From positions 260,241-324,240 of the forward strand of contig NMRA01000375.1 of the NCBI GenBank assembly GCA_002633005.1: DNA of 64,000 nt. Reading direction: 5' to 3'. The position numbers were made by a program, and so were the translations under genes. Below the pieces are notes generated by a model. The model saw nothing but the letters and a program-made list of their open reading frames with translations. It did not search any database and was not told the DNA's origin. Every line of letters begins with the position of its first letter. Positions within the stretch are counted from its first letter, which is position 1. Source of the stretch: Phoronis australis. Lineage: Eukaryota; Animalia; Phoronida. This document shows positions 3,601-57,810 of this stretch, piece after piece.

Positions 3601-6600
3601 CAAGTCCACATGTCACGTGGCTTCTTGTCTTAACGTTCTGTAAAACCCTGAAAAGTCTTCAGTTTTGGCCAACTTTGGAACATAGTGTCCCAGAAATGTC
3701 TGATCGGATTCACATGGAACTTTCAGATATTTATACAAAATGCTGTTAGGAATTTTTGTTTTTAAAGTGTATCACTTTTGCTTTTTCGTCAGTGTTGATG
3801 GCCATTTCGCAACCGATGAGATAGTATTTTATTTTCTGGGTCCATTTCAGTGAAGTGCTTGTGTGGCAGTTTTTGCAAATTATCCTACTAACCGTGATTA
3901 TTCTCTCTCTCAAATTTAAATTAGTGATGCGAACAGCCGGCAGTCTACGAGTTATCCTGAATACCAAGATCTGGAGTGGAATGTCTGTGGAAAAGGCTAA
4001 CGAACGGAGCGTCAGGCTGTCGGCCATGGACGAGAATAATATTAAAGTGTTCCTCATCATGGTAAGATAATGATTGTGGCTGTGATTTGACCAGATACTC
4101 ACCTGATTTTTTCCAGTGTGCATGGGTGTATTCATTTCAGCCACAAGTCCAGATAATAGTTTCAGTTTAACTTCTTGTTGCAGTCTCATGCTTGTGTAAA
4201 CGTTTGAATCAATATTGAATCTTTGTGGATCGAAGTGTGAATGGTATTCATCAAAAGTGGCCATAAACCCACCAGCGGCTGTCAAAGAACCTACTTTTGA
4301 GTTGGACCGCTTTCCTCTATAAAAGTGCATTATTCACAACTTGTTCTGTACTCAGATGAGTGTCTGATTTCTGTTCTATGGCAGAACTGACAATTTGGTG
4401 GTGCTTGAGATCAAATTTGGCTCATAAACAGATCTCAAGCAAATTGTAACTTGCTCCCAAGCCAACAAATGGTCCAAGGAACAAGTAAAGTCCAGATTTC
4501 AACTGCACCCCAGGTTCCCTATTTTTTGATGTTCATAGCTGCTTTTGTGGCCACCTAGTTTACAGTAATCAGAGAAGCATGCTTGTCATTCTATACAACC
4601 ATTTGATCTCTTGTCACTGCCTGTTCACGGTAGTGCGAAAGACACCAGCCAGCTGTGTGGTGGATTAGGCTGGACATTGATGTTCGTTATTTTACTGCTG
4701 CACCCCCGTGACTGTTGGTGATCACCATCAGTATGGTATAGGGCGCAAAACACTGAGCAGCTGTGGTGGATTAGATTGTACATCGATGCTCATCCGTTTA
4801 CTGCTACATCACTGCTACTGTAAGTGATCAGAGCAGGGTAGTGGGGAAGACACCAACCAGGTTTATGGTAGATTAGACTGGACATTCATACTAATTCTTT
4901 TACTGCTGCACCACCATGACTTGTTGATCACTATCAATGTATTGTAGTGCGATAGACACCAACCAGCTGTATGGTGGATTAGGCTGGACATTGATGCTCT
5001 TTGTTTTACTGCTGCACCTCTGTGCCTGTTGGTGATCATCAAACAAGTACTATAGTGCTAATAAAATGCTGACCTGCTGGTGATCACTGCAGGTAGCGGA
5101 AAGCCACCAGCCTGATGTATAACACAATAGACTAGCAAGTGATGTTGTCATTTATTTCAATCCCTTTTACATGTAGTTCTTGTCCATTACTGTTCAGGGT
5201 AGTGCTAAGGACACAGACCAGCTGTTTGGTGCCATAGAGGGGCGGATACAGCAGTTGAAGATGACTGAAGTTGCAGACAGTGGTTCCAGTTCACCCGAAG
5301 GAGAGGGTTTGGAGAAGAGGCAACGAGAGGACTCGCCCGAGGAATCACCACCCAGGAAGACCATGTAGGGAAGCATGCCAACCATTCTGTATAAATGTTA
5401 TGCATTCTGTTTTTTAAGGAAAACTGTGTGATCCATTTAACTTTTTTATAATATAGTAAGTCAGATCTAACTAGACTGGGGGATTGCATCTGATTGAGAT
5501 AAAAATCCGACTTATCTGAAGGTTTGATGAGTGCAGGAAATAAACTGTGCTACTTAACTTAATCGGACTTCCACACGATTTGCGGTATTTATTTCGTTCA
5601 AATTTTTTATTTGTACTGCTGGTGGCAGTCATACAAAAGCCAATTATTAGGTGATGCAGTCGACTTTGCAAGCCTCAGAGGTTAAAACCTTGCTGGCATT
5701 CCTTTTTGTGGCATTTGAAATAAACTTCAAGAACTTGGCTGGAATTGATTCAGGCAGGTGCCTTTTTTGATTTTTGAGATGCTGGTTTCAAAAGGATTCT
5801 GGAGTACAGACCACAACCAGTTGTACTTTGCTGTTCTTTCATTACGAGTCCATGTGCTTATCACAAAATGCCATTTGTCCTATGGTCCATTTGTCCTGAG
5901 GTCCATTTGTCCTATGGTCCATTTGTCCTGAGGTCCATTTGTCCTGGGGTCCATTTGTCCTGGGGTCCATTTGTCCTGGGGTCCATTTGTCCTGGGGTCC
6001 ATTTGTCCTGGGATCCATTTCATGAAAAATGACGTAAAGGGGAAAGCAACCATTTCTGATGTTATCTGTTGGTGACAATGCAAATCCACGGTTATATTGT
6101 ATGGCATTTTGCTGTGTTACTGTTCACATGACACCTGTTCTTGCCATGGAATAATGGGATGGGACATAAATGGCCTGGCAAAGAGCCTGCATCGTGGTTC
6201 TGTACTCACTTCCATTGCGCAAATCAATGTCCTACACAGACTGTGTCCAGTTGGGAGTAGAACATGGCTTCCTCAGTGGAAGTAAATACAGCAACAAGAT
6301 GTAACTTGTTTGGCTGTTTATGTTGTACTTGGAAAAAGGACCTGCAATTTGTTTACTAAAGGTAACATCCACTTGGAGGAGACTCGTCAGAAATTTGATC
6401 TTCGCAATTACTGAATAAAGGTTTAGCCATGNTGGTAGATTAGACTGGACATTCATGCTAATTCTTTTACTGCTGCACCACCATGACTGTTGGTGATCAC
6501 TGTCAGTGTATTGTAGTGCGATAGACACCAACCAGCTGTATGGTGGATTAGGCTTGACATTGATGCTCTTTGTTTTACTGCTGCACCACTGTGCCTGTTG

Positions 6601-9129
6601 GTGATCATCTGACAAGTACTATAGTGCTAATAAAATGCTGACCTGCTGGTGATCACTGCAGGTAGCGGAAAGATACCAGCCTGATGTATAACACAATAGA
6701 CTAGCAAGTGATGTTGTCATTTATTTCAACCCCTTTTACATGTAGTTCTTGTCCATTACTGTTCAGGGTAGTGCTAAGGACACAGACCAGCTGTTTGGTG
6801 CCATAGAGGGGCGGATACAGCAGTTGAAGATGACTGAAGTTGCAGACAGTGGTTCCAGTTCACCCGAAGGAGAGGGTTTGGAGAAGAGGCAACGAGAGGA
6901 CTCGCCCGAGGAATCACCACCCAGGAAGACAATGTAAGGAAGCATGGCAACCATTCTCTATTAATGTTATGCATTCTGTTTTTTAAGGAAAACTGTGTGA
7001 TCCATTTAACTTTTTTATAATATAGTAAGTCAGATCCTACTAGACTGGGGGATTTCATCTGATTGAGACAAAAATCCGACTTATCTGAAGGTTTGATGAG
7101 TGCAGGAAATAAACTGTGCTACTTAACTTAATCGGACTTCCACACGATTTGCGGTATTTATTTCGTTCATTTTTTTTTATTTGTACTGCTGGTGGCAGTC
7201 GTACAAAAGCCAATTATTAGGTGATGCAGTCGACTTTGCAAGCCACAGAGGTTAAAACCTTGCTGGCATTCCTTTTTGTGGCATTTGAAATAAACTTCAA
7301 GAACTTGGCTGGAATTGATTCAGGCAGGTGTCTTTTTTGATTTTTGAGATGCTGGTTTCAAAAGGATTCTGGAGTACAGACCACAACCAGTTGTACTTTG
7401 CTGTTCTTTCATTACGAGTCCATGTGCTTATCACAAAATGCCATTTGTCCTATGGTCCATTTGTCCTAAGGTCCATTTGTCCTATGGTCCATTTTTCCTA
7501 TGGTCCATTTGTCCTGAGGTCCATTTGTCCTGAGGTCCATTTGTCCTGGGGTCCATTTGTCCTGGGGTCCATTTCATGAAAAGTGACGTAAAGGGGAAAG
7601 CAACCATTTCTGACGTTATCTGTTGGTGAAAATGCAAATCCACGGTTATATTGTATGGCATTTTGCTGTGTTAGTTACTGTTCACATGACACCTGTTCTT
7701 GCCATGGAATAATGGGATGTGACATAAATGGCCTGGCAAACAGCCTGCATCGTGGTTCTGTACTCACTTCCATTGAGCAAATCAATGTCCTACACAGACT
7801 GTGTTCAGTTGGGAGTAGAACATGGCATCCTCAGTGGAAGTAAATACAGAAGCAAGATGTAACTTGTTGGGCTGTTTATGTTGTATTTGGAAAAAGTACC
7901 TGCAATTTGTTTACTAAACGTAACATCCACTTGGAGGAGACTCGCCAGAAATTTGATCTTCGCAATTACTGAATAAAGGTTTAGCCATGTGGTTATTAGC
8001 ACCTGACAGCCTAAAAATAATTGATACAAGTTAGACAGTAATTAGCAGTTATGAGTGTATTCTAAGACTTTGCGCTTAAGTTTGCTAAAGTGAGATTTAA
8101 ATATTTTTCAGAAGTAGTTGTGCGGGGTGTAAGACCAAATTTCTGACTTAAATCTTAAGTCATTTTTCATGAAACAGGCCCCTGGTTGTGTAATGAGAGT
8201 TATGTTTATGGTTGTAGGCGAGGTTGTGAAAGTCACGATCCCCAGCTGAGACGAGACATGAAGGAGGAGTCTAACGACAGTAGTACAGCTGACCCCGAAA
8301 CTGAAGGTGCTACTCTTGAACTGAACGTAATTTGAAAATCACCGATTGGTCCTTTACAAACAGGAGCGTGTTCTGTAACACTAGTCAGTTGTGAGACACC
8401 AGCTGCAAAACATCTGGACTGAAACAATGGGGCTAATCAGACTGATTTTGGGGTTTCCCATTTTTCTTTCGTAATTCATGATTCTGGCATAGCTGTCACT
8501 CACTTTCAGTGTCGGCCTATTTTGCTGCTGTATGCTAATAAGGATGTGGCATTACTCTCAGAACCCTAATGAGGTCTTGCCTGTCTGGTGTGGTCTTGTG
8601 TGATCTTGTACAACCAGATGTAACCCTACTATGGTGTACATCAACTTTACCAGTAGCCGTTTCACGATATCTTGACTAACTTAATACTTTTATCTTTAAG
8701 GGATTGAGGTGCCATTTTTTCCAGAAACATTTCTTCACTACCGAATCCAAATGAAAGGAAATGTCCTATTATAGCAAGCACTTAATAAATAAATGCAACT
8801 ATTGTTTCTAATTTACACTGGGTGTTTTCATCTTTGTCTATTTATTACAAGTTGAATGCTCTTGAAATACTGAGCTTTACAGTCAGCAGACGAGTGCTTT
8901 TTAGCTGTGACTATTTTATGGCCATTCAGTGACATAGCGTTGTACGATGAAGCTAACTCAGTGTTTACTAGTGTCTGTGATACCAAATTCATTTGTACAC
9001 GAACTATGCAATGCCTTTGTAAGTAAAATTGTGGAGGAATCTTTATAGAACTGTCTATCACTGTTTGCAGCGTCCAATGAAAGCTTCACGTCATCGCCTG
9101 CGGTAAGGTCGTCGTCATCCGAGTACTGA
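541..9129 (+). CDS. RANBP3: Ran-binding protein 3-like gene (5' end outside the window), spliced
   Basis: Exons with AG/GT boundaries and consistent phases: 541-625 (GGFIFGQNLSDRVT), 1040-1190 (DFVFGQNLADRV), 2273-2403 (LAESANEY...VVTGEEGEKHVLQ), 2834-2951 (INCKLFVFDK...WSERGRGVLRVND), 3925-4061 (VMRTAGSLRVILNTKIW...KVFLIM), 5198-5364 (duplicate 6767-6933; GSAKDTDQLFGAIEGRI), 8218-8306, 9071-9129 (TGA). FxFGQNL motifs plus this RanBD1 sequence are characteristic of RanBP3. Confidence 0.92.
1040..1190 (+). CDS. RANBP3: RanBP3 exon (FxFG motif)
   Basis: ttttag|aattct...aatg|gtttgt; NSVSPGNSLSTSDFVFGQNLADRVTT...KESN; donor is weak but phase-compatible with the next exon. Confidence 0.8.
1425..1740. 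repeat. Dispersed repeat (degraded TE) with a second copy at about 54930-55200
   Basis: Shared blocks in the same order: ttttggg(gc/a)tgaat, ggtt(c/a)gaatcact, ttgg/tcgg..tacttgagg, gaattttccc..tac.(c)aaaaaa.tcc..ctc..aagg.aca.gcac. Confidence 0.55.
2273..2403 (+). CDS. RANBP3: RanBP3 exon (start of Ran-binding domain)
   Basis: ttatag|gtgtg...ttacag|gtgag; KTLAESANEYLAKHSQKQEYEQVDVVTGEEGEKHVLQ. Confidence 0.9.
2834..2951 (+). CDS. RANBP3: RanBP3 exon (RanBD1)
   Basis: ttgtag|ataaac...gattg|gtgag; INCKLFVFDKTTMGWSERGRGVLRVNDRLAAVDHFQSRI. Confidence 0.92.
3925..4061 (+). CDS. RANBP3: RanBP3 exon (RanBD1)
   Basis: ttag|tgatgcga...catg|gtaag; VMRTAGSLRVILNTKIWSGMSVEKANERSVRLSAMDENNIKVFLIM. Confidence 0.92.
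4641..5060. repeat. Degenerate minisatellite, about 105 bp x4, in a RanBP3 intron
   Basis: Units start near 4641, 4751, 4851 and 4957; core tggtggattaggctggacattgatg...ttttactgctgcacc. Confidence 0.8.
5198..5364 (+). CDS. RANBP3: RanBP3 exon (end of RanBD1), copy 1
   Basis: ttcag|ggtagt...accat|gtaggg; GSAKDTDQLFGAIEGRIQQLKMTE...PPRKT. Confidence 0.85.
5871..6020. repeat. 16-bp minisatellite CCATTTGTCCTRDGGT, about 9.4 copies
   Basis: Direct count; the duplicate block has about 8.4 copies at 7441-7574. Confidence 0.95.
6767..6933 (+). CDS. RANBP3: RanBP3 exon, duplicate copy (probably the second haplotype)
   Basis: Protein-identical to 5198-5364; lies in the block that starts right after the n at 6432; donor at|gtaagg. 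Confidence 0.7.
7441..7574. repeat. 16-bp minisatellite, about 8.4 copies (second copy)
   Basis: Same unit as 5871-6020, one unit fewer. Confidence 0.95.
8218..8306 (+). CDS. RANBP3: RanBP3 penultimate exon (acidic tail)
   Basis: ttgtag|gcga...gaag|gtgct; phase-2 entry matches the upstream donor; RGCESHDPQLRRDMKEESNDSSTADPETE. Confidence 0.65.
9071..9129 (+). CDS. RANBP3: RanBP3 terminal coding exon
   Basis: tttgcag|cgtcc; phase-1 entry matches the donor at 8306; (A)SNESFTSSPAVRSSSSEY*; AATAAA downstream at 9564-9569. Confidence 0.6.
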
Positions 9130-9569: not shown

Positions 9570-11304
9570 GTGTTATCTATGTAACTATAACGCTGCTCAC
9601 TGTAAACACTTCAACGTTGTTTCAGATTTTAATCTTGCAACTTGGGCACTGTTGTCAACATAATAGGTAAAGCAGAAACTTGATTATTGGAGGTATTTTA
9701 TTTAACAATCGATGATACATAATATCGAGTTGTTTCACAATGTTGATTAAAGCTGCGCTCCCTGTCACAAAAATCAATACAGGTTTGGTTTAGACCACTT
9801 AAAGTTATAAAGTTAGTCTTGTCTTGTTCCTTGCTCAGTACAGAAGTGATCGCTGGGCTCAGCTCCTTCCATGCCCAGAAATCATATTTATTTTGACTTG
9901 GGAACAATTTGAGACCAATTTCATAACGGTAAGTGACCCAAGTCAAAACTTGATTTAATGCCTCTTTAACTCGAGGTGTGCTGACATTGGGGATGGATAT
10001 AACTTGATTGGGACTTAAACCCCGTGTACCAGTCAAGAATATTGCACGTTTCATTCAGTAGCACTTCTGAACATCACTTAGCCAGTGACAGAAATTACAC
10101 ATAAATCATACCATAAAGTCACCTGTCTTGATTTCAAAGAGTGTCTTAAGACATATGAGAGAATTGGCAATTTTGTAATAAAATCGCAAAAATGGATATT
10201 AGTATTTTCTAGCTGTCAAAACCAATAATCTCAAAAGTGCTGTTTTTGGCCATGAAAACGATAATATAAGTCATGACTCGCATTAAAAATCTGAATTCTA
10301 TGTAAAATTGCCTGCCAATGCCAACAAAGTAAAACGAAAATTTTATCATCTCTTTGACTAGGAGAAAGTTGAAAATGAAAACTTGGACACGATTCGTGAT
10401 CCAAGTAGACGTAGTCCAAATTTCGCACTCTAGGAGTATCCGTCAAAATCTGGAACCTGTATATGATAATTGCAAATATAAGATGGTTCAGTGACTAGCT
10501 CACAAAATCTCAGTTTGAGACGTGCAAACAGACAAATGCACAATCATTTACAGCGCGATCCATACGTATTCAGACAAAACGACCGCAATTACAACTTGGC
10601 GGAACCCGAATTCATTGTCGGAGTAGTCTTCCCTCACGATTGAAAACGGAATTAACAGGAAAGTTAGTAAGGTGACTAAGCCATTCTGTAATTTGAATTT
10701 AGCAACCATAGTTCTTACCAGTCTATTTGCTGTTAACAGAATTGGCTATCATGATGGGGATAGCGGCATTCTTCCACTTTTGTCTTGTCCTGTATTACAC
10801 AGGTCCATGACAGAGCACCAATCTTTATACAGTATAAAGAATTCATCCACCCTTTAGTCGAGTCTCTAGCTCCTCCACTATTAATAAAGCGCAAAAATGG
10901 TTCCAGGTGATCAGTGAGCACTACACCCCCACCTAGTGAGCAACTTGCGCATGTCTGCAACAATTTTTACAAATTAAAAGGATTCATACAATCTTGGTGT
11001 CTTTAACTTGCTCTTCAACAATTCATGTGGATTTGGCAAATATGCTTGTGGAGAAAGTTGTTTGAACACCAGAACGTTATTTACAGTAGCTTTACGTGAT
11101 TAAGATCTGGGGCCATGATTTACAGTTGGACAAACAACTTTATGACAGGTGTAACATAGGCCAACAGATACGACAAACTAGACCTACAGTGAAATGTCAT
11201 CTCGCACGCATTGAACAGGCCCAAATTACTTCGTGATTGATGGAATAATTTTATTATTTTGCAATTCACTAATAAAAAACCAATGACGAGACTTGTAGAC
11301 TCCA

Positions 11305-11383
11305 TCACCTGTCCATAATTGTTCTGTATTCCTGCTGATGTTCCACCATCTTCAGAAATACTTCATATTTCTTCTCATAGAAT
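11305..11383 (-). CDS. FGGY: FGGY terminal coding exon
   Basis: [25 protein letters not shown]; AATAAA on the minus strand at 11250-11255. Confidence 0.92.
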
Positions 11384-14300
11384 CTGAAAAGACATACAAG
11401 GATACCAAGTTATTTACTCACCAGAAAAACATGATTTAACTATTCCAATATAAACGAACTATAATGCTTTGCAAGCAATGCTACTTAATTACAGAAAATA
11501 AGATAAATTATGGATTCACTTCAACTCTGATAAGACAGCAGATCCCCCATCTTGTCAGACATCTGGAAAATCATGTTATAATTGTAACTTCACCATGTGC
11601 ACTCGCACGAGGAGTTCAGTCGGTGCTCAGTCAGAATTTGCTCAACGCTCAATTGACATGACTGGAAGAATTCTAGGTCATTTTGTCTAATTATAGTTGG
11701 TATGTATTTTGTAGCATTTTCACACAACTGAAATGCAAAGAGTTAGGTCAAATTATTAGATTAGGTGAAAAACGTCCGATACCATGCCTCTGTGAACGAT
11801 CTTTCACGTGGTTGATCCACTGACTGATTCAGATGACCAAAAAGTCAGTTAATGAAAATTCATATGTTGTATAAAGTAATGTTCCTACGACACTTACTGC
11901 CCGACCTTGTCATCTGGTTTAACTACGTCCCCTTCCCCTCCCATGTTCTCCATTGCCTCGTTGATCCCACCTCTGAACTCTCCGGAAGCACACGCTCCCA
12001 AGATGGCTGAACCCAGCAGCACGGATTCAGAGTTGTGTGGCAGGATAATAGGAAGTTCTAAGGAAAAAAGCAGCAAATCATGCTTAGTGTGCAGATAACT
12101 TACTATGCATTCACCACAAGACAGATAACTGACAACTTCCAAGACTTCTAAAACAACCTTTTCATTTGTAAACCCGCTTAAACCCGTTCACTTTTAAAAA
12201 CTTAGAAGTGTACAGAAATAATGCAAGGGGGTTTTAATCCTGTGACCATGTTTTATTTCCAAGAAATCATGATTTTTATGGCAATTGATGTAACTTTCAC
12301 ACGCATATGATTTTTTGAATGGAACCTACAAAATAAATTGTTAGTGGCAGAAGTGTATTTTCTGATTTTCATATTTTCAATTTGTGCTGTCAAAGTCAAG
12401 ATATTCAGTCTTTTCATTGTGAAGTTTTTGATTTTTTACAGCTGATTTCTTGGGGCTTAAAAACCTTGACAAAAATCTAAGATGTATTATTAATGAAGCT
12501 TTGCAAATTTTGTGCCAAAAATCATGAAGTTACAGTGATCTCTGCAAAAAATCATATAAATAATTTTTTAACTAAATATTAAATTAAATGCTAAAATATC
12601 TGTCAAATTAAGGCTAATTGATATCTTTTAATCCGCATTTCCAAAGATTATCATCAGTCACATTATTATTGAATGTTGTAACATGTTGTGAATCATGGCA
12701 AGAGCCAGACGAATGTGTAGCACGTTTAAACCACTCGACAAGTGGACACCTAGTCCAACGTAATGCTTGGACTTCTATACACCTTGGGCCAGGAATGTAC
12801 CCATCACGACATCATAGATCCACCTGAGGGTTAATCACTCTTCCAGCCACTCTATCAGGGAATTTTGGCTGAACTCTGTCGCCATGACAGGGAACGCTGT
12901 GGCATTTTATCCGATTATTTTGTCGTGCACTGGTCAGAATGGTGAGAACTTACTAGTGACATCTGCATGTACTTGAACGTACAGGCTGTTCTTACTCAAT
13001 CCTCCACAAGCACACATCACCTTGATCGTATGACCATGCTCCTGTATGGTGTCAATGATATGCTTTGTGCCGCACTGAAATGAATGTAACATGATGATTC
13101 TAGATCAGATATCTCTAATTGCTTGAATCAACAGGTTGTCTTAGTGTATTCTTGTAGTATGAGAACAAAGTCATAACAAATGAAATGTACAGCCACACTT
13201 CATGATAGTTGCAGGTGGTCTGGTACACTTTGCACCAGACATACTTTATTTACATGGGGTTAAAACTGAGCTGAAAAGCTAGAGACTCGATTCAACGGTC
13301 TTGCAGTGTGCCCCAGTGGGACTCGAACCCATTACCTCCAGTAAAGGATTGAAGCACACTCCTATGCCACAATGTCACACAACCACTTTTCCAATACGTG
13401 TTCAAATTATCAATCCATGAGTGTTCACACTCGACAAGTGGACCTTGGATTGATACTAAAAAGTTATGTCATGCACCTTGAAGAGGAGTGCTACCTTTAT
13501 TCACATGTTGTTTTGTGTCATCAACATAGTACAAATTAGGCAACTAAAATTTTGGTAATTTTATCGAAACATTTGATAAAAAAATTCACTAGTGTAATAA
13601 ATAGATGAAGAACTAAACTCTGACAGTAATTCATTTCACAAGTGCATGCAATGCCTAAATGGACGAATATTGTGTTTATTTATATCATGCGGTAAATATA
13701 TACACAAAACGTACCGAGAGTGGCGTAGATGAATTAATATCACACTCAACATTATTAGTCTCGGCCGATACGTGGATTAATGTCCCGTGGGATATTACTT
13801 CGTCTACACCAATCGAGGTACATTTTGTATTTATCTCATATGCTTCGGCAGATTTTTTAAATACTTCACTCAGACTGTTCACGTGGCGGATCCAACCTAT
13901 ATATATGTACTTGCGCGATAGGTTGCAAGTTTTCTCTAGTAAAAGAAACAGTTTTAAATGTAACGATTTATTACTTGAAAAGAGATAACAAAAATGAAAA
14001 CAACTGTGTATTGAACTTGTAACATCTCCACAAAGTAGTAGATATTGAAGTTACTGAGGAATCGGCGCCGGAGTTGCAGATGATGTAATATTTAGCAATT
14101 GAAAACTGGGACAGAAGTATCATATAATTAACAGTTTTGTAACGGATGTTACGTTTAGAGCCTGATTGCATGTCGAGTGTTATTTATACTGATGTTGCAA
14201 CTGTATTACTTTAAACTGTTTGATGATCAAACTGGCGAACAATGTTGAGTCGACATTGACTTTTTGAACTTTCCATGGCAGAGGTCACTGTTGAAGTAGT

Positions 14301-17300
14301 GCAGGAGGTGAATGTGGAAAACATTTAATTTATTACATAGCCGTATTGCACTTGACAGATTCAACGCGTATGGGATAAAACTACAATTTTAACAGTGTAA
14401 GCCACAGCATGAAGATAATGAACTCAAGGCTAGACGTATTGGTTATACTTACCGCTAGTGCCTGGATCGTAGTCAAGTACAACTTGGCTAAATCTTCAAC
14501 ATCATTAGAAAGTCGCAATCCACATAACTACAACGGGTAAAACTGGATTATTGAACTACACCATGTTTTGAAGACTGTGATGAACCTTTGGCATAAATTA
14601 GAATTAAGCTTACTTCAAATCACGAGGCTGACACTAAAATATGATCTTTAAGACTCAAAACGTTTTTGGATGAACAATCATAAACCAGTATTTTTCAAAT
14701 AAAATAGGAGCAATTAAGCAATGAAAAGAACAAAAACAGTCACTCTAGGGAATAAAGACTAAAGACAAGTTCAATGAAACAAGCCCAGTTGTTTTAACAA
14801 TATTGAAACAAGTGAATGGTCTGATGACACCTTTGACTTCATCTGATAATTAAAAACAATTTTATTCTAAGGAGCACGCAAATCATTTTTAGAATCCACT
14901 GAAATCAAAGGTTTATTCATTTGTTTCTTGTTAAAACAAAGAATTAATAAAATGTTTTTGACAAAATGACCCGGAATTTCCCCGTCATGAACGCTGGGCA
15001 GAAGCGACATTCGTCATCAAAACAGTCCTAGCTAATGACCAAAAATAAATTTAAGGGGAATATTAATAGGAAAGTTTTTTTTAACAGGAAAGTTAGTAAG
15101 GTGGCTAGACCATGTTGTCGTAATGATTGTTACCAGTCAATGTTGCTGTTAACAAAATTAGCCCTCATCTATTTTGTCTGAACCCTTTAATCTGCTTGGG
15201 TCACTTTAACATATTATTGAAAATTTTCCTCGAATTATTTTTAGCTTTCAACTCTTCCTTTTACAGTCATCCATAAGAAATGTGCTTCAAAAAAGACTGT
15301 GTCATTGCCACATGATCTTCATGAAGACGCCATTTTCACTCAAATAACTGAGTGGAAAAACAGAGGTGCAGAAATTGACAAAATCCTTCTGAAAGAAAAA
15401 CAAAATGTTCTTATTTCGGATGAATTTTGAAGCTAACAAATTGACGAGGATGCAGATTTTCAATTGATGAGATTTTGCCTTCTGTTTTTAAAAATGCAAA
15501 AATTACAATTTGTGAAAGATATTTTTACTGCTTGGGTTTTTATTTGGTGGAAGACATCACTTTCCCCTGGCCTGTTCAAAAAACGAACTTGCTATTACGC
15601 TTGTTACCACTGGCAGTGCTACCAACAAGAAACCTCCAAGTTATCCCCTGCCAAGTTATAGCACGTGGAAGTCTACAACATTACCATTCCAGTTAGAGAT
15701 GGGTCAGCTATGGGAGATCGATTTCCATGGTAATCTGGCCACATGTGCAAATGCCTGGTTAACTCTGCCATGTGACAGTTGTGATTTGATGCCATCTCTT
15801 GGAGGAAGTTGTTCAAATAGACGTGGACATGTTGGTTTCTGGAAAAAATTCAATTCAATCTCTACAATTATTCAAATGAAATGCAAGCTACTAACTTTGT
15901 TTTGCAATAATTTTTCATAAAAATCAAAAGTCACAATTAGTCATCATATTTTTTTCAAAAATAGTGAAGGACATCAGCAGATTACCTAAATTTAAAGCTG
16001 CGAACCAACTGAAAAGAACCTAATGGAAGCTATGGATCCTAAAGTATGCTTAGTTTGAAGAAAGAGATTTAAAGTAAATATTTGGAGTCCTGTCCATCAC
16101 AGGTCTTGTTATTTAGGTTGATTGAAAATGCAATAATTGCTGCCTGTAAGCCTTCCCGATGTTTCAGAGTGGGTTACGTAGCCTAACATCCAATATTAAT
16201 AAAGACAAGTTTCAAATTCAAACACAAAATCTTGAGTATGAAAATTCAAAACTCACTTTTTGTCAGCAAGTTGTTTGACTTCACTGTAGGCCACGTGTGT
16301 TGTTACTATGTGATCAATCTAGAAAACAAGATGAAATGCAGTACATTATAGGAGAAATGAAAGAGCAGACGTCAAGATTTATAGCAACACAGAACACACC
16401 AAGTATTCAGACAAAATAATTTGCAATTCCCGTCACGATGACTGGAAGCTGAAAGCATCATTAGAATAGCATTACGACATGACTGAGAGCGAAAGGGAAA
16501 CAACTGGAAAGTTTACTTAATACTAAGGTGGATAAACTATTCTGTAATTAGTAATTGTTACCCTAGTAATTGTTACCCTAGTAATTGTTACCCTAGTAAT
16601 TGTTACCCTAGTAATTGTTACCCTAGTAATTGTTACCCTAGTAATTGTTACCAGTCAGATTCTCTGTTAGCAGAATTAACTGTCATGATGAGACATTGTA
16701 TTTTGTCAGATTACTTTCGTTATGTACTGCAGTTGTTTTAAACATTGCAAATGACAGATTGAAGATTTCCAATTAACGTTTTTGGTGGAAGCATTCGCCA
16801 AAATTTATTTTACAATTGACAAATGACACGAATGTTTAGTTTGATTTCACTATAGATCTAAATGTCTGGCATTCCATTCATGACCGTTCAAAGTTCTGCA
16901 GTGCAAAACACTTTTGGAACAAGACAGAATTGCCTTGAATTGTTCACATTGTATGCGCCTGTGACCTCAAAATTTCAAAATTCCATCTGTATGCCATATT
17001 GTGTCCTAAACAGCAGAATTGTTACCAGTAGTTATAACTGCATGCACAATCAACACATACTCAATAAATTGCTGGGCCCGTTTCACCAAAGCTCATAAAT
17101 CAGGGCTATGTATGACAGTGTCGTAACTGTTTTCATAGCACATAGTTCATTAATGTGCTTACGAATGCAAGTCTCAACATGAAAATTATTAACAGTATGT
17201 CAGCTGCAACATTTTGCTGATGAAAAACAGCATTTTGATGGCAAGTATGTGCTCACAACCATCTTAGCCATGATCATACGCTTTGATAAAACTGGCTTCA

Positions 17301-20300
17301 CATCCCTCAGCAACAACAAAAGAGCAAGGTTGGCAATAAACTACTTTCAGTTTACAACAGACCATAAACATCATTCTGCTGTCAGTGATATTTGCCTGAA
17401 CTGTGTACATGTTCCATTGTTCAACCAGTGTAAAAATGCCTGAATGCAACATGTCAGTAGGGCAAGTCTAGATGTCAGTATAAAGGGGACTTTCTGGCAT
17501 GCATCACTATAAGCAAACTGTTAATTAAGTGTTAAAGAGGTTAAAAATTCCTTGATTTGTATAATAATTTTCACGTCCATTCTGATTATGTATTAAACAT
17601 GTCAGAAAAGGGTAAAACTTTTAAAGACATCAGAATTCACAAAAGGGAAAATTTCCTTCACAAAAGGCAGCAAAGCGCTTCTTATTCATCTCTAATTTAA
17701 GTCACCATAATGTAAAAATAAAACAAATGAATTCTTATTTTTAATTTTGCTAAAAAATGGTAGTTTTTGTTGTACACTGTTTTTACATCTTGAAGAATGA
17801 TCAAGATATCGTTTTCAATCATGCACCAAGTATTTTGTACATGAACATGGACCATTAACTCTATGCAAACCAATTACAAGACAAATTCATAAGGCCGCAT
17901 GCAATATAACGTACAATCATTCACAGCACATTTTCTCAAGGTCAAGATCACATTTTTGGTCATGTGATCTATATTGTGAATATTTAGGACAAAAAATGAA
18001 AGAGAAATAATTGAAGTTTTGGCAATATATTGATATCCAATGTACCATTCATCGGTAACTGTTTCCTAACAACGTTATTTAGCATACTTTATCTTTAATT
18101 ATCAATTAAAAAGTAAATCGGTTGAGCAGCTCCATTACAAGGTCATCGCCTATGACATCAACAGGCGATGTATTGTCTACTCTCTTGTAAGCACAGTTTA
18201 TCACCACCCACTCAACACAAGTTTTGAGCACCACCTGTAGGTGCAAGGAGGTGCCACTATTTTGTGAGAGACCATCAACGGTAGCTTTTAAGTTTTAAAT
18301 AGCTTTAAGTCGCAATAAATCCATGTTCCGTCAAAGAAACTGAATTTTGTTTAGACCCCTTACCGCTCTAAAACAGGTTCCAAACTGTTCCTTACACAGA
18401 TGAAAAGGTAATTTTTGGTCTAGCAAAGAACTGGAATATCACTCTTTCCTCAAGACCATGTTCAACAAACAAAATGATGAGCCATGACAAGTCAACTTGT
18501 AGGGTGTGATCTTCAGCAATAACGGACTGCCACTTCAATCCAAACTCATAAATCACACCCACATTGACTAATAAAAAAAAAATTATGGCCTTGAGTTCCA
18601 TAACAGGAAGTGAAATAAAAAATTGTTGTTCTTTGTGACGGAAGGCAGGCTTGTAGCTGCTTTAATGGATTATCCGAATCTGCCGTAAATATAACTATGA
18701 TGCGCAAGACAATTCCCAGTTCATACTTTATCTAGAGTTGCCCTTACCAGTTTGCCTGCTGCTGACTGGCCTGGCTCAAGTGACCAATAGCCTGGCACTA
18801 TTGACTGATGGTACGGCCCCCACACACCAGGCACAAACAATGATTGGCTACAAGGGGTCATGTGACATGTTGAGGTACCACATATCAGTGCCATCTTTTG
18901 ACCAATATCAGTGTGAGACATAGCAGGCACTGAGCAGCTAAGCACACCTAGAAAATAATGACCAAATTCAAGACATGTTGACTAAAGGTTAAGTTAGTTA
19001 CTAGTTTAAGCTGAGACAAGTCACTTGCAGAAGCCAACTGATCCTCCTGTTGCCGCAGCGATTCTCAAATGCTGGACAAAAGTTCAGGGTTCACTCATTA
19101 ACAAAAGCCAAGGATTTTCATTTGCGAGTTAGCAAGTTACTTTTAACTAACACACACTCACAAAATAGTGACCAAAATAACTGAGGTTGAAAATGTGTTT
19201 CATTACTTGCAGTTGAACAATTTATAAAATCGATACAAATCAACGATCATGAGACGACCAATTTCCAGCTTGAAGGCATAAAGAAATGTGAGAATCGTAC
19301 AACATTTCCCAAGTGATTTGTCCACCAAACTTGTCTTAGGCAACAGCCTGATATGACATGCCCAAATTTTGAAAACCAGTTGATGCCCGTTATTCGGTGG
19401 AGAAAACTGGTTCTCAAAATGCGGGCACATTATATCACGTTACACCTGTCTTACATATTATTATTTACCAGTTTGGCCACAGCTGATTGCCCCGGCTTGG
19501 ACCAGTACCCCGGATGTATGGTGGTATCATAGAATGGACCCCAAATATTGGGCACGTATATGGGCAATGGAGATAGCACCATATAGCACGTGGAGGTTCC
19601 ACAGATGCATGCCAGCTTGCAACTCACAGGGATCTCATCCCACTTGATGTGGTTAGTGGTCACATGACAACACAGAACACCTACAACACCAGACTTATTG
19701 TTGAGGTCACATGACGGCAGTGCTTAAAAGTCACATGATAACTGCAGCACTGGTCGTATGATGGTAGTACTTTGGGTCAATGGTCATTCAACATTAGCTA
19801 GCCCACATAACATCTGCACCACAGGGTCACGGCATAGTTATGTAACAATGGTTACATGACAGTCATAGGGTCACATGACAGCTTTACATGACACACTCCC
19901 CATGCAAATTTCACAGCATTCTTTGGGAGTATTTAAGATCACTCTGATAAGTGGTGGTGTACACAAGTCAAGACGCCTCCTTGTGTTGCTCACACAGGTC
20001 ACACAGTACAGTTTGGGACATATCAACAAATGTGCGTTATTTGTCTTATTTTGGTTGTTGTTAACTGATTTTTGCTGTTCAAACAACGAAAAAGTTAAAT
20101 TTCCAATGATGGATTTAATTTTATAGTCAGGGAAAGAATGTTGCCAAGAATAGGTACGAGTTATCACTGACATCCAGGCATCCTGTTCCCCTATCCACGA
20201 ACAAAAGAAGACAACACATTCAAAAAAGTCCAGGATCGTGGCAGTGCTTATTGTAATCCCAACCGGTAAGAAGCATAATTTCATAGTTGCCTAATGGGAA

Positions 20301-23300
20301 ATGCAAGACAGTGCCTAATGATCAGATGGCCACAAGACAGCAATGGCAATGGTCACATGGTAAACAAATTAGGTCACATCATACATGTAGTGACTAGTGC
20401 TTACAAAAAAAGAGCTACGTATGGCTCTTAATGCATTTTTAACCCACGGAGATATAGAATTACATCAAGATGGCTACCAACTATGAGGTGCTATATTAGT
20501 ACCTAGTCCACCTGCATGAGCATCAATCATTGAGGTAGCCACGGCAACACCAGCACACAGCCCCATCTGTTGAGCAGCTTGTTCTGTCAAATGACCGCAC
20601 AGCTCACCAGGACTTTTGACAACATTACCTAGTGTGAAGATGTGAATAATTATGCAAAATTAATCTTAATTTTAATTAGTTAAAACTGTGAAGAGTAAAT
20701 ATTTTTACTTCAAACAATTACCAATTTAAAGTACAATTACCACAAAAAGGGGCTAAAAACAATAACCAGTACAAAACTAGTGATGAGCAGAAATAATGGA
20801 AAATCAGATAAAATGTATCAAAAAGACATGGGACATCGTATGCANTTACAAAAAAAGAGCTACGTATGGCTCTTAATGCATTTTTAATCCACGGAGATAT
20901 AGAATTACATCAAGATGGCTACCAACTATGAGGTGCTATATTAGTACCTAGTCCACCTGCATGAGCATCAATCATTGAGGTAGCCACGGCAACACCAGCA
21001 CACAGCCCCATCTGTTGAGCAGCTTGTTCTGTCAAATGACCGCACAGCTCACCAGGACTTTTGACAACATTACCTAGTGTGAAGATATGAATAATTATGC
21101 AAAATTAATCTTAATTTTAATTAGTTAAAACTGTGAAGAGTAAATATTTTTACTACAAATAATTACCAATTTAAAGTACAATTACCACAAAAAGAGGCTA
21201 AAAACAATAACCAGTACTAAACTAGTGATAAGCAGAAATAATGGAAAATCAGATAAAATGTGAAAAAGACATGGGACATTGTATGCAATAACACCTGGCT
21301 TCAGCATCAACGTATTCAGATAGGTATAAGCCCAGGTGAGTGACAACTGAACTCACCTAGTCCATAGTAAAGAGTGAAAAGGCGGAAACATTTGGACGAT
21401 CAAATACTTTAAACTTGGTGTCCATGTTAAAACTAACGGCCACACTTCCCGCCATAAACTCACATTCACTACTAACAGAGTAATCTTGTAGGAAAAACAT
21501 TGTCAAAGATTAATCCATTTTTGCTAAAAATGCAGAGAACTTTAATATAGAACCTGTTGTTAGGCTCAACATCTCCAGTAAAACCCTACCTGTGGGTCAT
21601 ATCATGGGGTGTTGACTGGGGTGAGGAAAGAACATAGAATAGAAATATTAAAACATCAGTCGTAGGACTCGTCTAAAATACAGCACATACAACACATTAC
21701 CAATCTTAGAATAGTTGTTGTGCACAAGATCTTCCAAACCAATCAGTTGCAAGAAGTCATCAGGCCAATGAGGCGGGCTGTCATGGCTGGCAAGGTAGTT
21801 CCACTTACACACCAGTGAACACAGTGATCTGCAATATTGAGAAATTACAGTTAACAGGCAACATAGTTCGCATGTATACAAACTCATTAGCCTACAACAA
21901 CTTAATTCCAAAGTAACGTGTGAATAGTCATATCCATTATTTTCCAAAGGCTAGTTGCATGTGAGAGACAGAACGTCAATGACATGCATTTCAAAAAGTT
22001 GACAATAGTTAATTTTTGCCAAGAACCAAAAAAAGAAATTTTAAAGCAAAATTTCATCCAAATTTTCAGTTAGTGCAGTTATTCTTTTTCAGGTTTCACA
22101 TCACATCCTAAGTGAGCACGAAACTTATGCCCTTGCATTAGCACTTAAATAGACCACTAGGGCACACAACAATAAATGACTAGTCTCATACCTGGATAAC
22201 TGGCCAGTACTTTTCCACGTTAGGAAGTCAGGTAGATCAAAGAAATGGCCAGCTTTTGACCAACTCTCAGGCATATTCTAAAACAGACAATTACAGCAGC
22301 TGTGACCTCGCCTTCTATCGTAGACTAACGTGTGATTTAGACCATTTACCGCTGAAACATTTGCCCTATGGCGCTGCTGTGACATCACTGAAAACTTGGT
22401 CTGCATTCCACAGAAGCAAGAACTTAGCAATTAAGATAGTGTGATCACGTGCTTCATTCATGAACTCTTGCGGAATTTTGCGTTCTCGTGATTTTCCTGT
22501 ATTTCTCTGGAATGCAAGACTGACATTTTATCTGGTGATATTTACTTCAGTGTGACTGAATGGTGTGTGCCTCGAGAACCTTCGGCTCAAAAACTTGCTT
22601 AAAGTTCATGTCTTCATTTGTTGCATTTTGAAGCTCACTTTTTAAAAAAAATTATGGTTGTTTTGTCGTACTCGCACCAAAATGCATATTGCAGTGGACC
22701 ATTGCTTTCAACTGTGGTGAGAACATATGACATGTATAGTTTTTCGTTACATTGTTTGCAAGTCACCACATGATGCCTCCAAATGTTTAAGAGCCGACAA
22801 CTGTCCCACATTTTGATAAACGACAAGAAATTAGCTGAGCCCATATATATTTTTCCTTGTTCAGATTGCAAGCAATTTCTGGGCTTAAGAAGAATTAATG
22901 TGTAACACAAGGCTCAATCAGTTGGTTTGGTCCGGCTGGTCAATTTATCAACCAAAAGCATTATGTCCAATGTTTGGACTAGTACATACAGCACACATCA
23001 CGAATTTTTGGCCGACCGGTTGGAAATTGGTCGACGGCCGGCCGTCGACCGGTCGGCAAATTTGCCGACCGGTCGGCTAAAAATTAGCCGACCAGCAGCC
23101 GCCCGCAGTGCCGACTCATAAGGCGACTCCCCAGCCGACCCTTCAGCCGACCGGCCATCAGCCGACCAACTGGTCGGCTGCTATTTTTAGGCTAGAGTAG
23201 CAGTTGCGTAATAGGTTGTCAGGCTGATACCACTTTGCGTGTCGATGCATATTCGTCTTAGCACAGGGTCAAATATATTAACCTAGTTCCACTGTCTCCG

Positions 23301-26300: not shown

Positions 26301-27867
26301 AATTGGTCGTCTACGCTAGGCGACCATTTAGCCGACCCAAGTGCCGACCACAGAGGCGACTCAGCAGACGGCTCCTAGCCGACCGTTGTTGGTCAGCTGC
26401 TGGTCGGCTAGACGACCGGTCGACGGCCGGTCGTCGACCAATTTCCGACTGGTCGGCCAAAAATTCGTGATGTGTGCTGTAAAGGATTCATCTAGAAGTT
26501 TGTATCTAAAGGACTTGGCTGCACCTTTGTCAAATCAATTTATTGAGCCTGGTCCATAAAATGCAGCAAAGAAGAGAGAGCAAAATGCCCTAATGAATAA
26601 ACTTGTTAAGTAGAACATTGATGTTTCCACAGCTGAGCCAAAGTCAACTATAGTCCTCAACCTTCTTGCCAAATGTGTACATCAGTTTGAAAATGGCTGC
26701 CGAAACACAGAGATCAAAAACGTTAACAAGATAATGACATTGTCGTTCATGTCCAAAGAATTTAGCTCCCATATGTATTCTGAAAGGATAAATCTTTTTA
26801 GTATTTCATGCCAAGTGACAAGATGACTGGATAAACTAAACGTGCATACCTGCTTCAGCCACATCAACTTGGGCATCTCCATCTCCAAGGAGATGACCCC
26901 ACCAACATAGTCCAGCACCTTGTGTCGTGACCTGTTGATGACCTCGGCCTGCTCATGTGCTCTATGGTCCATCCACATGATAATATTCCTCTCATCAGAA
27001 CCTGAGTAGCGAAAGGTATACTTTAAAATGATATTAACATAAAGGTGAAACGGCTTATATCTAAAATTTGTAATAGACCAAAAGCCCATCAAAAAGGTTT
27101 AACTTAATTATAGTTTCTAGACAGATGTGTTGTTTTACATGATATTCAAAGAAAATTTAGTGTGATCAAAATCTGACTTCATTAGTCTAAAGAATTTTCT
27201 TCTAACTAAACACCAGATGCTAAGTTTTCCCAAGGACGTAGAGACATAAACCTTGCTCAAAATACAGCTGCAAAAACTCTTGCATGAAAATCAAACACTG
27301 TGCTTGACCCCATTAGACAGAATATTACACAATAGGTGAGACGTACCAGAAGGACTGATTGTCAGTGGCTGTCCAACAGTATCCATGACAACCAGAGAAC
27401 ATGTAGCGTCGAACCCAATTCCTTTAACAAGGGTGTTGTCCACAGTATCACTTACTGCCTAAAAACAAGAACAAGTACTAGAACCAACTGAAAATTCAAT
27501 CACATTATCCTCTTCCCATAACATTATTTCTTCAAGCAAAACTGGATGTGTTGCACTGACCAGTCTTCAATGTTCACGGAAAGCTAGCATTAGGAAATCA
27601 GAAAATAAAACATGAGCATTATTTGAAGTGCTCATACTACTCATAGTGCTGCTGTTGTGAATCTTTTAACGCAATACCCGCGCTGATTACCTTGACAACC
27701 AAGCAAACTTTGTTCCATACATCATCCGAAGACTGCTCATAATATCCCAGCTTAGGTTCCCAGATTGTGATTGGCTCAACAGCCGAGGACAACAGCTTTC
27801 CTTTGGCTGAAAACAGTCCAGCACGCACACTGCTTGAACCTACATCCACACCAATGAAGTAAGTCAT
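11305..27867 (-). CDS. FGGY: FGGY carbohydrate kinase domain-containing protein (D-ribulokinase-like), 13 coding exons, about 543 aa
   Basis: Exons in transcript order: 27867-27691, 27458-27347, 27001-26850, 22277-22192, 21828-21701, 21073-20948 (duplicate 20628-20503), 18947-18748 (alternative 19680-19469), 16318-16257, 15838-15685, 14527-14453, 13074-12954, 12057-11898, 11383-11305. Total 1632 nt in frame. Motifs: [101 protein letters not shown]. Confidence 0.96.
11898..12057 (-). CDS. FGGY: FGGY coding exon 12
   Basis: [27 protein letters not shown]...[19 protein letters not shown]. Confidence 0.93.
12954..13074 (-). CDS. FGGY: FGGY coding exon 11
   Basis: [40 protein letters not shown]. 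Confidence 0.93.
13200..13370 (-). mobile_element. Possible tRNA-derived SINE fragment
   Basis: Minus strand reads gtggcatagg...GGTTCGAGTCCcactgggg (B-box-like); no full cloverleaf seen. Confidence 0.4.
14453..14527 (-). CDS. FGGY: FGGY coding exon 10
   Basis: [25 protein letters not shown]. Confidence 0.9.
15685..15838 (-). CDS. FGGY: FGGY coding exon 9
   Basis: [12 protein letters not shown]...[26 protein letters not shown]. Confidence 0.93.
16257..16318 (-). CDS. FGGY: FGGY coding exon 8
   Basis: [20 protein letters not shown]; ttctag / gtgagt. Confidence 0.88.
16551..16652. repeat. 15-bp perfect minisatellite GTAATTGTTACCCTA, about 6.8 copies
   Basis: Direct reading. Confidence 0.95.
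18305..18665. mobile_element. Possible degraded TTAA-flanked MITE
   Basis: Left ttaag..ttccgtcaaagaaac; right-end reverse complement ttaaag..ttccgtcacaaagaac. Confidence 0.35.
18748..18947 (-). CDS. FGGY: FGGY exon 7b (canonical-looking)
   Basis: ttctag|gtgtgc...aaactg|gtaagg; 200 nt, phase 1 to 0; [12 protein letters not shown]...[30 protein letters not shown]. Confidence 0.92.
19469..19680 (-). CDS. FGGY: FGGY exon 7a: divergent paralog of exon 7 (candidate mutually exclusive exon)
   Basis: ttgtag|gtgttc...aaactg|gtaaat; 212 nt, phase 1 to 0, no stops; [70 protein letters not shown]. Confidence 0.6.
20503..20628 (-). CDS. FGGY: FGGY coding exon 6 (identical copy A, across the n at 20845)
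   Basis: Identical to 20948-21073; 445-bp duplication. Confidence 0.75.
20948..21073 (-). CDS. FGGY: FGGY coding exon 6 (copy B)
   Basis: [42 protein letters not shown]. Confidence 0.85.
21701..21828 (-). CDS. FGGY: FGGY coding exon 5
   Basis: [42 protein letters not shown]. Confidence 0.92.
22192..22277 (-). CDS. FGGY: FGGY coding exon 4
   Basis: [28 protein letters not shown]. Confidence 0.92.
22989..26479. mobile_element. Non-autonomous DNA transposon, 3.5 kb, in FGGY intron 3
   Basis: TIRs of about 67 bp (CAGCACACATCACGAATTTTTGGCCGACC...), TA on both flanks (22987-88, 26480-81), subterminal GCCGACC/GGTCGGC arrays, no long ORF. Confidence 0.85.
26850..27001 (-). CDS. FGGY: FGGY coding exon 3
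   Basis: [15 protein letters not shown]...[12 protein letters not shown]. Confidence 0.93.
27347..27458 (-). CDS. FGGY: FGGY coding exon 2
   Basis: [37 protein letters not shown]. Confidence 0.92.
27691..27867 (-). CDS. FGGY: FGGY coding exon 1
   Basis: [19 protein letters not shown]...[17 protein letters not shown]; acceptor ttccag just upstream of the ATG, donor gtaatc. Confidence 0.93.
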
Positions 27868-53000: not shown

Positions 53001-54252
53001 AAAATCAACCATTTACCTTTGAAGGTCAAACATTCAGTTCAAGATTAAGTGTCCTTGAGAAGAAATTAAGTCTGGCTTGAAGACTCTGAATGTCAAGGTT
53101 CTGTGGGAATTGTTAAGTGAATTTAGTTGTATATTGGTTGACACGCTCTGCCGCACAGACTGGAGTTGAAAGGCTGTTCTGCGACTTCTCTCAACCACTA
53201 CCAATATACAGTCACAATATTGTCGTGTTCTACTAATGACTGAGGTTCCCTTCTCACCAACTGGTTGTTGAAAAAACACCAACACATCAATAACATGAAA
53301 AACAATACTATAGACAGATTGGTTGTCATAGAAACACTTAAAGCATTTGATAACCATTGCATGCTTACTGCTTACAGTAGTTACAGTTAACATATTATTT
53401 GAAGCTGTTTTGCTCTGAGATGTCTGAGTGATGGTACATATTTAAAGGACTGTCCTCAAACATTTTGTTGGTGTGCGCTTAACGAGGCACTGCATTACCA
53501 TGGCACATTTTTGATTACATGTAGGGCATTTTGACATTCCACCAGGAGTAACTAGTTTTCTGAGAGGTCTACTTTTAGTGAAATTACATCTTATTATCTC
53601 AAACATGGGTATTGCTGCAACACATTATATTTAAATCAGTTCACATATTGCTTGGGATTCGAAATAAGGCCACTTTGAGAGTAATAAATGGTATTATTGA
53701 TTCAAACTTGAGTTCTTTGATTGTCTTTAGAAAAAGAGAAAGGTAGATATTTACCCAGTCACATGTAGAGTAATTTTTTACCATTTTCCAACAAAAATAG
53801 CCGTTTTTTCATTTTTGAGAGTATTAGTTCGCATTTTTTTCAAAATACTGTCTGATGGCTATGTAGCAGAACTTGAAATGATAGAACTAATTTGGTTTCA
53901 TTTAAGATGTTGGAAATAGCATTTTACTAGTTGGCCATATTGTGTCTTGTACTTGTAAGATTTTATCGTAACAATACTCCCAAAAGCAAAAGAATGAAGG
54001 TTGTCTCTTGTTGACTGACCCTGATTGACTGGCCCCATCATCGTATAATTGATTCCCTTGGAGACTTTTAAAATGTCCAAGCTTTTTTGGCTACTGTAAA
54101 CATGCTTTTACTTGTGACCATGCCAGTTATTAAATTTTATAAACTCTACCCTTTATTTCCATAGAATTGTAGTGCTGAGTAGCAATCTGGTTTTAAGACC
54201 TTCAAAACATCCACGAAATGCCACTGTCTGGTAAAGTTAATTATGGTTATTA
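50017..54252. repeat. 1.32 kb duplication (50017-51340 / 52929-54252) separated by a TE and an n
   Basis: Near-identical blocks; n at 52928. Confidence 0.9.
51341..52927 (+). mobile_element. TA-inserted CCGTA-ended DNA transposon (truncated at the n)
   Basis: ta|CCGTAAATGTTTGGGTTAACGCCCTGGGCGG...; the duplicate block shows the empty site ttatta|gtatc at 54252. Confidence 0.85.
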
Positions 54253-57200: not shown

Positions 57201-57370
57201 CTGGAGTAGGGCATTCCATTTTCAATGTTTTGCACCCCAGAGCCATTTTGGTCTTAGGAGTCTGTCAGGGGAGAACCGTTTAATGGATTTCATTGAAACT
57301 GGATGTATAGGTCATGTCATTGGGCAATTTCAACTACTGCAGCAATCTTTAATGGCCATTTTGTCTGGTT

Positions 57371-57492
57371 ACTTGGCGGAATTCTTCCGCCAAGTATGTT
57401 GCTCTGACAGCAAGTTTTTTTTTTTACTTGGCGGAATTCTTCGAATTCCGTCAAGTATGTTGCTCTGACAGCAAGTTTTTTTTTTTTTTTTT
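57371..57492 (+). mobile_element. 5' end of a Helentron-associated (HINE/DINE-1-like) element
   Basis: ACTTGGCGGAA-ttc-TTCCGCCAAGT hairpin, repeated twice, then poly-T; sits in a T-run that is uninterrupted in the other copy (58858-58862). Confidence 0.6.
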
Positions 57493-57690
57493 NNNNNNNN
57501 NNNNNNNNNNNNNNNNNNNNNNNNNNNNNNNNNNNNNNNNNNNNNNNNNNNNNNNNNNNNNNNNNNNNNNNNNNNNNNNNNNNNNNNNNNNNNNNNNNNN
57601 NNNNNNNNNNNNNNNNNNNNNNNNNNNNNNNNNNNNNNNNNNNNNNNNNNNNNNNNNNNNNNNNNNNNNNNNNNNNNNNNNNNNNNNNNN

Positions 57691-57810
57691 CCCCCCCCCC
57701 CGATTTCTTGAAATTTCACGTTTAAGCGCCCATGTCTGGTTAACCGCCCACCCCCGATTTTTTGGGTTCGCCAATTTAACCGCCCAGGGCGTTAACCCGA
57801 ACGATTACGG
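57691..57810 (-). mobile_element. Terminal fragment of the same CCGTA-ended family, opposite orientation
   Basis: Reverse complement of the 51341 end; followed by TA; empty site at 56324-56325 in the duplicate block. Confidence 0.85.

Follow-up and report, generated by a model that had tools for sequence, protein, structure and literature searches.

Tandem diverged copies of a core exon in an FGGY sugar kinase gene: candidate mutually exclusive exons with a predicted change in the sugar pocket

The FGGY sugar kinase gene on the minus strand of the 64,000-nt stretch of DNA analysed here (the window, in whose positions all coordinates are given) has two versions of exon 7, designated 7a and 7b, which would derive from an old tandem duplication. 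Both versions are spliced into RNA, likely one at a time, and the frame suggests that transcripts with both or neither would run into an early stop, with nonsense-mediated decay as a likely backstop and the choice of exon presumably set by other factors. By homology, the 7b form would be a standard pentulose (D-ribulose-type) kinase. The 7a form has Lys in place of a Glu that is predicted to bind the sugar, and its activity is likely lowered or redirected; such a protein would be folded and weak on D-ribulose, either resembling the low-activity KHK-A or acting on another ligand. This full reading, i.e. homologous mutually exclusive exons together with a functionally changed sugar pocket in the 7a form, we consider reasonably likely. 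The features of the locus are as follows.

27691..27867, minus strand: exon 1 (coding), with the ATG at 27867 and the GVDVGSSS phosphate loop; gene model
27347..27458, minus strand: exon 2; gene model
26850..27001, minus strand: exon 3; gene model and TIGR01315 match
22192..22277, minus strand: exon 4; gene model, joint to exon 5 in 4 + 0 + 1 reads
21701..21828, minus strand: exon 5, with SLCSLVCKW; gene model, RNA joint and TIGR01315 match
20948..21073, minus strand: second copy of exon 6, identical in exon sequence, inside a 450-nt duplicate of 97% identity; likely an assembly duplicate
20503..20628, minus strand: proximal copy of exon 6, 126 nt, ending DAHAGGL; partner on the upstream side of both exon 7 versions; 6 reads join it to 7a
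19469..19680, minus strand: exon 7a, 212 nt, the alternative copy, with ICGTSTCYM, WGPFY and WSKPGQS; open frame, AG/GT ends, RNA joints
19496..19498, minus strand: AAG codon for Lys in 7a, at the position where the sugar-contacting Glu aligns; mapped by column to Glu329 of B. halodurans L-ribulokinase (PDB 3QDK)
18948..19468, minus strand: intron between 7a and 7b, 521 nt, ordinary GT-AG, with a palindromic repeat at 19349-19437
18748..18947, minus strand: exon 7b, 200 nt, the standard-type copy, with ICGTSTCHM, WGPYH and WSLEPGQS; joined to exon 8 in 4 + 2 + 5 reads
16257..16318, minus strand: exon 8, 62 nt, the downstream partner; RNA joints to 7b and exon 9
15685..15838, minus strand: exon 9, with PDYHGNRSP; joint to exon 8 in 8 + 6 + 6 reads
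14453..14527, minus strand: exon 10; gene model
12954..13074, minus strand: exon 11; gene model
11898..12057, minus strand: exon 12; gene model
11304..11383, minus strand: exon 13, coding part up to the stop codon; gene model

The gene and its two versions of exon 7

The 13-exon model runs from the ATG at 27867 to the stop codon at 11304 and encodes 543 amino acids with 7b or 547 with 7a. Both exons are 2 modulo 3 in length, are entered in phase 1 and left in phase 0 and are free of stops, and with these shared phases and compatible lengths either one alone gives a full-length FGGY kinase. Inclusion of both brings a stop after amino acid 351, inside 7b, and omission of both a stop after amino acid 261, at the start of exon 8. 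The coordinates, lengths (212 and 200 nt), AG/GT ends, phases and open frames reported in an earlier note on this DNA were all verified in the sequence, as was its statement that taking both exons or neither breaks the frame. Outside exon 7 the protein is 40-57% identical to 30 sampled FGGY homologs and is by sequence a full-length member of the family; in a tree the gene groups with the FGGY proteins of animals and lies beyond the vertebrate clade, with no finer resolution. TIGR01315 is the best match for all four window exons scanned, the scan having been made exon by exon.

The two adjoining exons are homologous to each other. They share 31 identical residues over 65 aligned codons, match the Pfam profile FGGY_C from its position 1 (25.2 bits for 7a and 39.7 bits for 7b, with a cut-off of 27) and cover the same stretch of TIGR01315 (277-327 for 7a, 270-329 for 7b), which bears out the paralogy claimed earlier.

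Other duplicates in the window are 95-98% identical, are located at N joins and are likely to be uncollapsed haplotypes. The one of 450 nt (97%; 20401-21293) contains exon 6 twice, without a difference, on either side of a single N at 20845, and four further ones lie at 4866-7993, 50017-54252, 56324-58859 and 58874-64000. On the plus strand, at 503-1303, the window also contains two open stretches, FIFGQNLSDRV and FVFGQNLADRV, which we take to resemble RanBP3-type repeats.

Splicing of 7a and 7b in RNA

Splicing was followed in three raw-read RNA runs of one study (X1, X2 and X3), found by their species label, of each of which about 18-19% was read; an RNA contig set (X4) had zero depth on every exon. 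Counts are of reads and not of fragments, a joint is listed only from at least three reads, and other junctions were read off the depth table. The orientation of all reads on the exons is that of a minus-strand gene. Both versions of exon 7 are spliced into RNA: the joint of exon 6 to 7a is carried by 0, 0 and 6 reads (the 6 in X3, with four starts) and is listed in one of the three runs, and that of 7b to exon 8 is carried by 4, 2 and 5 reads, 11 in all. These are two of the four junctions that the earlier note had proposed to look for, and 7a, whose presence in RNA it had left to be seen, is read in all three runs.

The other two proposed junctions, 7a to exon 8 and exon 6 to 7b, are not among the listed joints but fit depth arithmetic, with three and two reads, respectively. 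The aligner extends reads over matching intron letters, and 7a, 7b and the introns upstream of them all begin with GT, the intron after 7a among them; in the exon 6 boundary bin each read leaves 10 bases instead of 8 (20 = 2 x 10 in X2; 120 = 12 x 10 in X3). All 14 reads leaving exon 6 enter an exon that starts with GT, and therefore none skips to exon 8. In X2 two reads cover about 73 nt of exon 6 and leave the 5' part of 7a bare, as a junction of exon 6 to 7b would; the remaining six X3 reads that leave exon 6 enter either 7b or, with short overhangs, 7a. At the 7a donor, 17 bases in X1 and 34 in X2 fall into the depth bin 19445-19485, exactly what one and two reads ending at 19469 would leave; these reads have 43, 85 and 52 bases on 7a. 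Because each leaves 17 bases, where 7a to 7b would give 19, all three leave 7a for a partner other than 7b, and 17 is the pattern predicted for exon 8, which starts with AT. Splicing of 7a to exon 8 is thus suggested by the arithmetic on these three reads, and the predicted exon-9 ends of two of them (15793 and 15802) coincide with depth steps, which is consistent with such splicing and not proof of it.

By the same arithmetic 7a is joined to 7b in none of 3 reads and exon 6 to exon 8 in none of 14, although decay could hide such RNA. Of the informative junction reads, at most 28 in number, 9 belong to 7a. The read pattern fits use of one exon at a time, in line with the two isoforms that had been proposed, and we hold mutually exclusive use of 7a and 7b to be very likely. 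Exclusivity may be less than strict, as the reads are few and decay could hide transcripts that include both exons.

Exon 9 differs between RNA and assembly. At six sites between 15721 and 15805, four of them silent and together about 4% of the exon, all three runs depart from the assembly, five of the six in every covering read; the RNA therefore came from another individual or stock. Over the part of 7a covered by at least three reads no such difference is listed, compared with the six in exon 9.

Two other accounts of the paired exons have to be weighed against these data. The pair could be an assembly product in which two haplotypes or gene copies were joined, as in the doubling of exon 6, and the several 95-98% duplicates at N joins, exon 6 among them, speak for this. 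Yet no N lies between 7a and 7b, a blastn comparison of the window with itself gives no match between their regions, their flanks do not align with each other, silent sites are saturated (14 of the 20 four-fold degenerate sites differ) and reads of both exons occur in each of the three RNA runs. The contrast with the haplotype duplicates drawn in the earlier note, of far greater divergence and no intervening N, is upheld, and an assembly origin is hardly credible. Alternatively, 7a could be a poison exon, mainly included with 7b, where the frame shift leads to RNA decay and tunes the level of FGGY. RNA with both exons reaches its stop in 7b, far ahead of the six remaining exons, and would be under-counted, and the joint of 7a to exon 8 is absent from the listed joints, all of which would suit such a role. 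However, none of the three reads leaving the 7a donor fits 7b, and a pN/pS of 0.41 between the copies would not be expected of a poison exon, whose amino acids are free to change. We regard a poison exon as very unlikely and return to mutually exclusive use.

Steric exclusion calls for a short intron or a distant branch point with a long AG-free zone. The 521-nt intron, of ordinary GT-AG type and with the next AG lying 32 nt upstream of the 7b acceptor, argues against such blocking. For docking and selector pairing of the Dscam type, the best scores did not stand out, 9 of 25 and 7 of 10 shuffles doing as well in what is a crude, single-species test, and a search for inverted repeats gave no convincing pair. 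As the intron is long and ordinary, no pairing signal was found and the frames give early stops, nonsense-mediated decay would be the likeliest backstop. Two repeats lie in the introns of this region. The palindromic repeat at 19349-19437, with 33-nt arms, begins 32 nt past the 7a donor, and in each run it collects well over 1,000 RNA reads that stem from elsewhere; a tandem array of about seven copies of a 15-nt unit occupies 16534-16668 in the intron after 7b.

Sugar pocket, selection and relatives

In the L-ribulokinase of B. halodurans (AraB, PDB 3QDK), Ala96, Lys208, Asp274 and Glu329 hold L-ribulose, according to the available part of PMC4880283, and a bacterial D-ribulokinase model keeps all of these contacts but Ala96, Glu329 included, as given in the available part of PMC12307932. 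By counting in the alignment, Asp274 corresponds to the Asp of DAHA in exon 6 and Glu329 to the Glu of EPGQS in 7b. AraB is the source of this residue map; it is bacterial, has another specificity and is without splicing, and its contact geometry is assumed for the animal enzyme. The Glu329-equivalent sugar contact is present in the 7b form (GAG at 18777-18775) and the 7a form is without it, having Lys (AAG, 19498-19496) in the same column. Near this Lys one codon has been lost and one gained, and both cores are 46 residues long. The earlier description of a loss of the E before PGQS is right in that Glu is absent but needs amending, as the residue is not simply lost and Lys stands in its column. 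Similarly, the longer N-terminal loop noted in 7a is real but no oddity of that copy, since its length is that of vertebrate FGGY proteins, and it may be the 7b loop that has been shortened. The change of H to Y in the CHM motif stands as described (TCYM in 7a against TCHM in 7b).

The homolog comparison was an alignment count over 258 distinct segments from 267 proteins. In the column equivalent to Glu329 the homolog segments show Glu 248 times out of 251 and never Lys, and the Gly that follows GQSA, replaced by Ala in 7a, is Ala in none of 243. A Pro precedes GQS in both copies (18772-18774 and 19493-19495) and is shared by a single one of 251 homolog segments and by the metagenome locus described below; in this respect 7b is atypical too. 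In the FGGY family a few pocket positions set specificity, as stated in the available part of PMC3245297. The change in substrate or activity that had been proposed for 7a would now rest on the replacement of Glu by Lys at the predicted Glu329-equivalent contact, and we infer that the 7a protein folds but would handle D-ribulose poorly.

Divergence between the copies is saturated at silent positions (pS 0.79) and lower at replacement positions (pN 0.33), and their ratio of 0.41 (bootstrap 0.28-0.58) overstates dN/dS. The dN/dS near 1 by which the earlier note would recognize a decaying pseudoexon is therefore not what is seen between the copies. Residues conserved in the family core are kept at 21 of 22 positions in 7b and 14 of 22 in 7a; among 20 conserved sites, which leave out the Pro common to both copies and the Pro shifted by one position, 6 are changed in 7a and none in 7b (Fisher p 0.02). 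Four of those six changes (H to Y, G to N, V to I and Y to F) bring in residues used by at least three homologs. When neutral decay of 7b was simulated to an equal number of changes, with a transition bias of 2 and an indel rate of 0.1 per substitution, such conservatism arose in 0.02% of 20,000 simulations (P ~2e-4), the exon stayed stop-free in 29%, and the mean BLOSUM of the 7a changes, 1.5, was reached once in 20,000. In addition, 7a has P, S and P at positions where 75, 89 and 83 of 100 homolog segments do and 7b does not. With silent sites saturated and changes far more conservative than neutral decay would give, a decaying copy is unlikely, and the low pN and conservative changes speak for purifying selection on both copies. 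On a homolog profile 7a scores lowest (65.7 bits, against 91.0 for 7b and 100.6-160.4 for the homologs, which are the training set); this and the asymmetric loss at conserved sites also fit relaxed selection. We take the exon to have diverged as a protein under constraint, probably faster than 7b, a history with which a very recent relaxation would be compatible, and maintenance of the 7a protein by selection is, in our estimation, likely.

A very recent relaxation is the starting point of one further alternative, in which 7a was functional for long, lost constraint lately and is still spliced into a non-functional by-product. It could draw on the asymmetry at the 20 conserved sites, on the Lys and Ala found in none of the homolog segments, on the 7a acceptor, the weakest of 13 compared with 9 pyrimidines in 20 where the others have 11-16, and on the fact that 27% and 7% of simulated exons come through a short neutral spell (0.05-0.1 changes per site) intact. 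Against these stand the single simulation in 20,000 that matched the conservatism of 7a, two compensating 3-nt indels that hold its core at 46 residues, a share of the junction reads too large for a trace, and the lack of any listed RNA/assembly difference over its covered part when exon 9 has six; we think this course of events unlikely. Exclusion could also be real while the 7a enzyme remains an ordinary pentulose kinase whose kinetics or regulation differ only modestly. The catalytic Asp motifs lie outside exon 7, with the equivalent of Asp274 in exon 6; GTS, WGP and GQS are intact in 7a; and a cyanobacterial kinase phosphorylates D-ribulose although it has no counterpart of Glu329, according to the available part of PMC4880283. 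The Glu, however, is nearly invariant in the subfamily and never Lys, and its charge is reversed in 7a, which makes an ordinary enzyme improbable.

The preferred reading remains that of a constrained 7a protein with a changed pocket. Relatives were sought in protein and metagenome searches. The 7a protein search gave no matches among 4 candidates, 7b gave 124 (best identities 44-68%) and exon 6 gave one bacterial match among 15 candidates; a profile of 7a and 7b had 742 matches, considered here as the best 150 of the 742, and of 10 looked up 5 were vertebrate. None of these searches yielded a close relative, and none of the 267 homolog proteins carries two copies of the exon-7 motif. A metagenome scan of 85 candidate stretches gave one locus, L001, with an intronless FGGY-like frame (L001:131-1831) that shares 49% of its residues with the window protein when exon 7 is left aside. 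Its pocket motifs are altered (VEWETPKL, SVCSVHAKW, DAYAG, TCYM and GPFY) with EPGQS present, and one in-frame TAG stands at 689-691 where Trp is expected; it may represent a separate subtype of FGGY or a pseudogene, or contain a sequencing error. The Tyr and Phe seen at those pocket positions in 7a thus co-occur outside it, but with the Glu kept. In a tree of 70 columns 7a joins L001 with support of 81 and a pairing of 7a with 7b is not rejected (p-AU 0.56), and therefore nothing follows on the origin of 7a. A bolder and rather doubtful possibility is that 7a would bind and phosphorylate an acidic ligand (ribonate, gluconate or a sugar phosphate) and not D-ribulose, and that the Tyr/Phe-type pocket recurring in L001 would mark an unrecognized FGGY subtype; if so, the swap of one exon would give an animal a second sugar-kinase activity.

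Comparison with known systems

Homologous mutually exclusive exons are a known kind of event. Substitutions of tandem duplicated exons number 236 catalogued human events in the available part of PMC8373072, and nine such events touch catalytic sites in that of PMC7954323; 7a and 7b are like them in being homologous tandem exons and in their phases, conservative divergence and probable use one at a time. The KHK pair is listed as a tandem duplicated exon event in the available supplement of PMC8373072, and KHK exons 3A and 3C are mutually exclusive, lie in the catalytic domain and give low- and high-activity forms according to the available part of PMC13296549. For FGGY we found no earlier report. 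It is mentioned nowhere in the available text and supplement of PMC8373072 (KHK, as a control, five times), nor in the available texts of PMC7954323 and PMC9741552; the available supplements of PMC7954323 hold no FGGY but no KHK either, which makes for a weak search. A literature search, with most subscription papers outside its coverage, turned up nothing on duplicated exons of FGGY. The human splice variant of FGGY described in the available part of PMC13264262 involves exon 12, a cassette exon of primates that lies away from the active site, and not a duplicated core exon as here.

Among eukaryotic FGGY/pentulose kinases (TIGR01315; PDB 3GG4/3L0Q) the window gene is by sequence a full-length member. 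A pair of isoforms differing in one pocket-lining exon would be a ready-made test of the role of the Glu and of the substrates of this fold. FGGY is a sugar kinase of the metabolite-repair type, and what it does in animals is poorly defined; its human and yeast members are reportedly D-ribulokinases, as Singh et al. are said to have found in 2017. The mechanism itself is well known, so the surprise is moderate, and FGGY would follow ketohexokinase as the second sugar-kinase family whose active site is apparently retuned by a duplicated exon. KHK has another kinase fold, that of the PfkB family. KHK-A/KHK-C and the FGGY gene described here are alike in being sugar kinases with swapped catalytic-domain exons; unlike in KHK, the exons of FGGY, at 200 and 212 nt, are not multiples of three, the charge at a predicted sugar contact is reversed, and the activities of the two forms are predicted ones.
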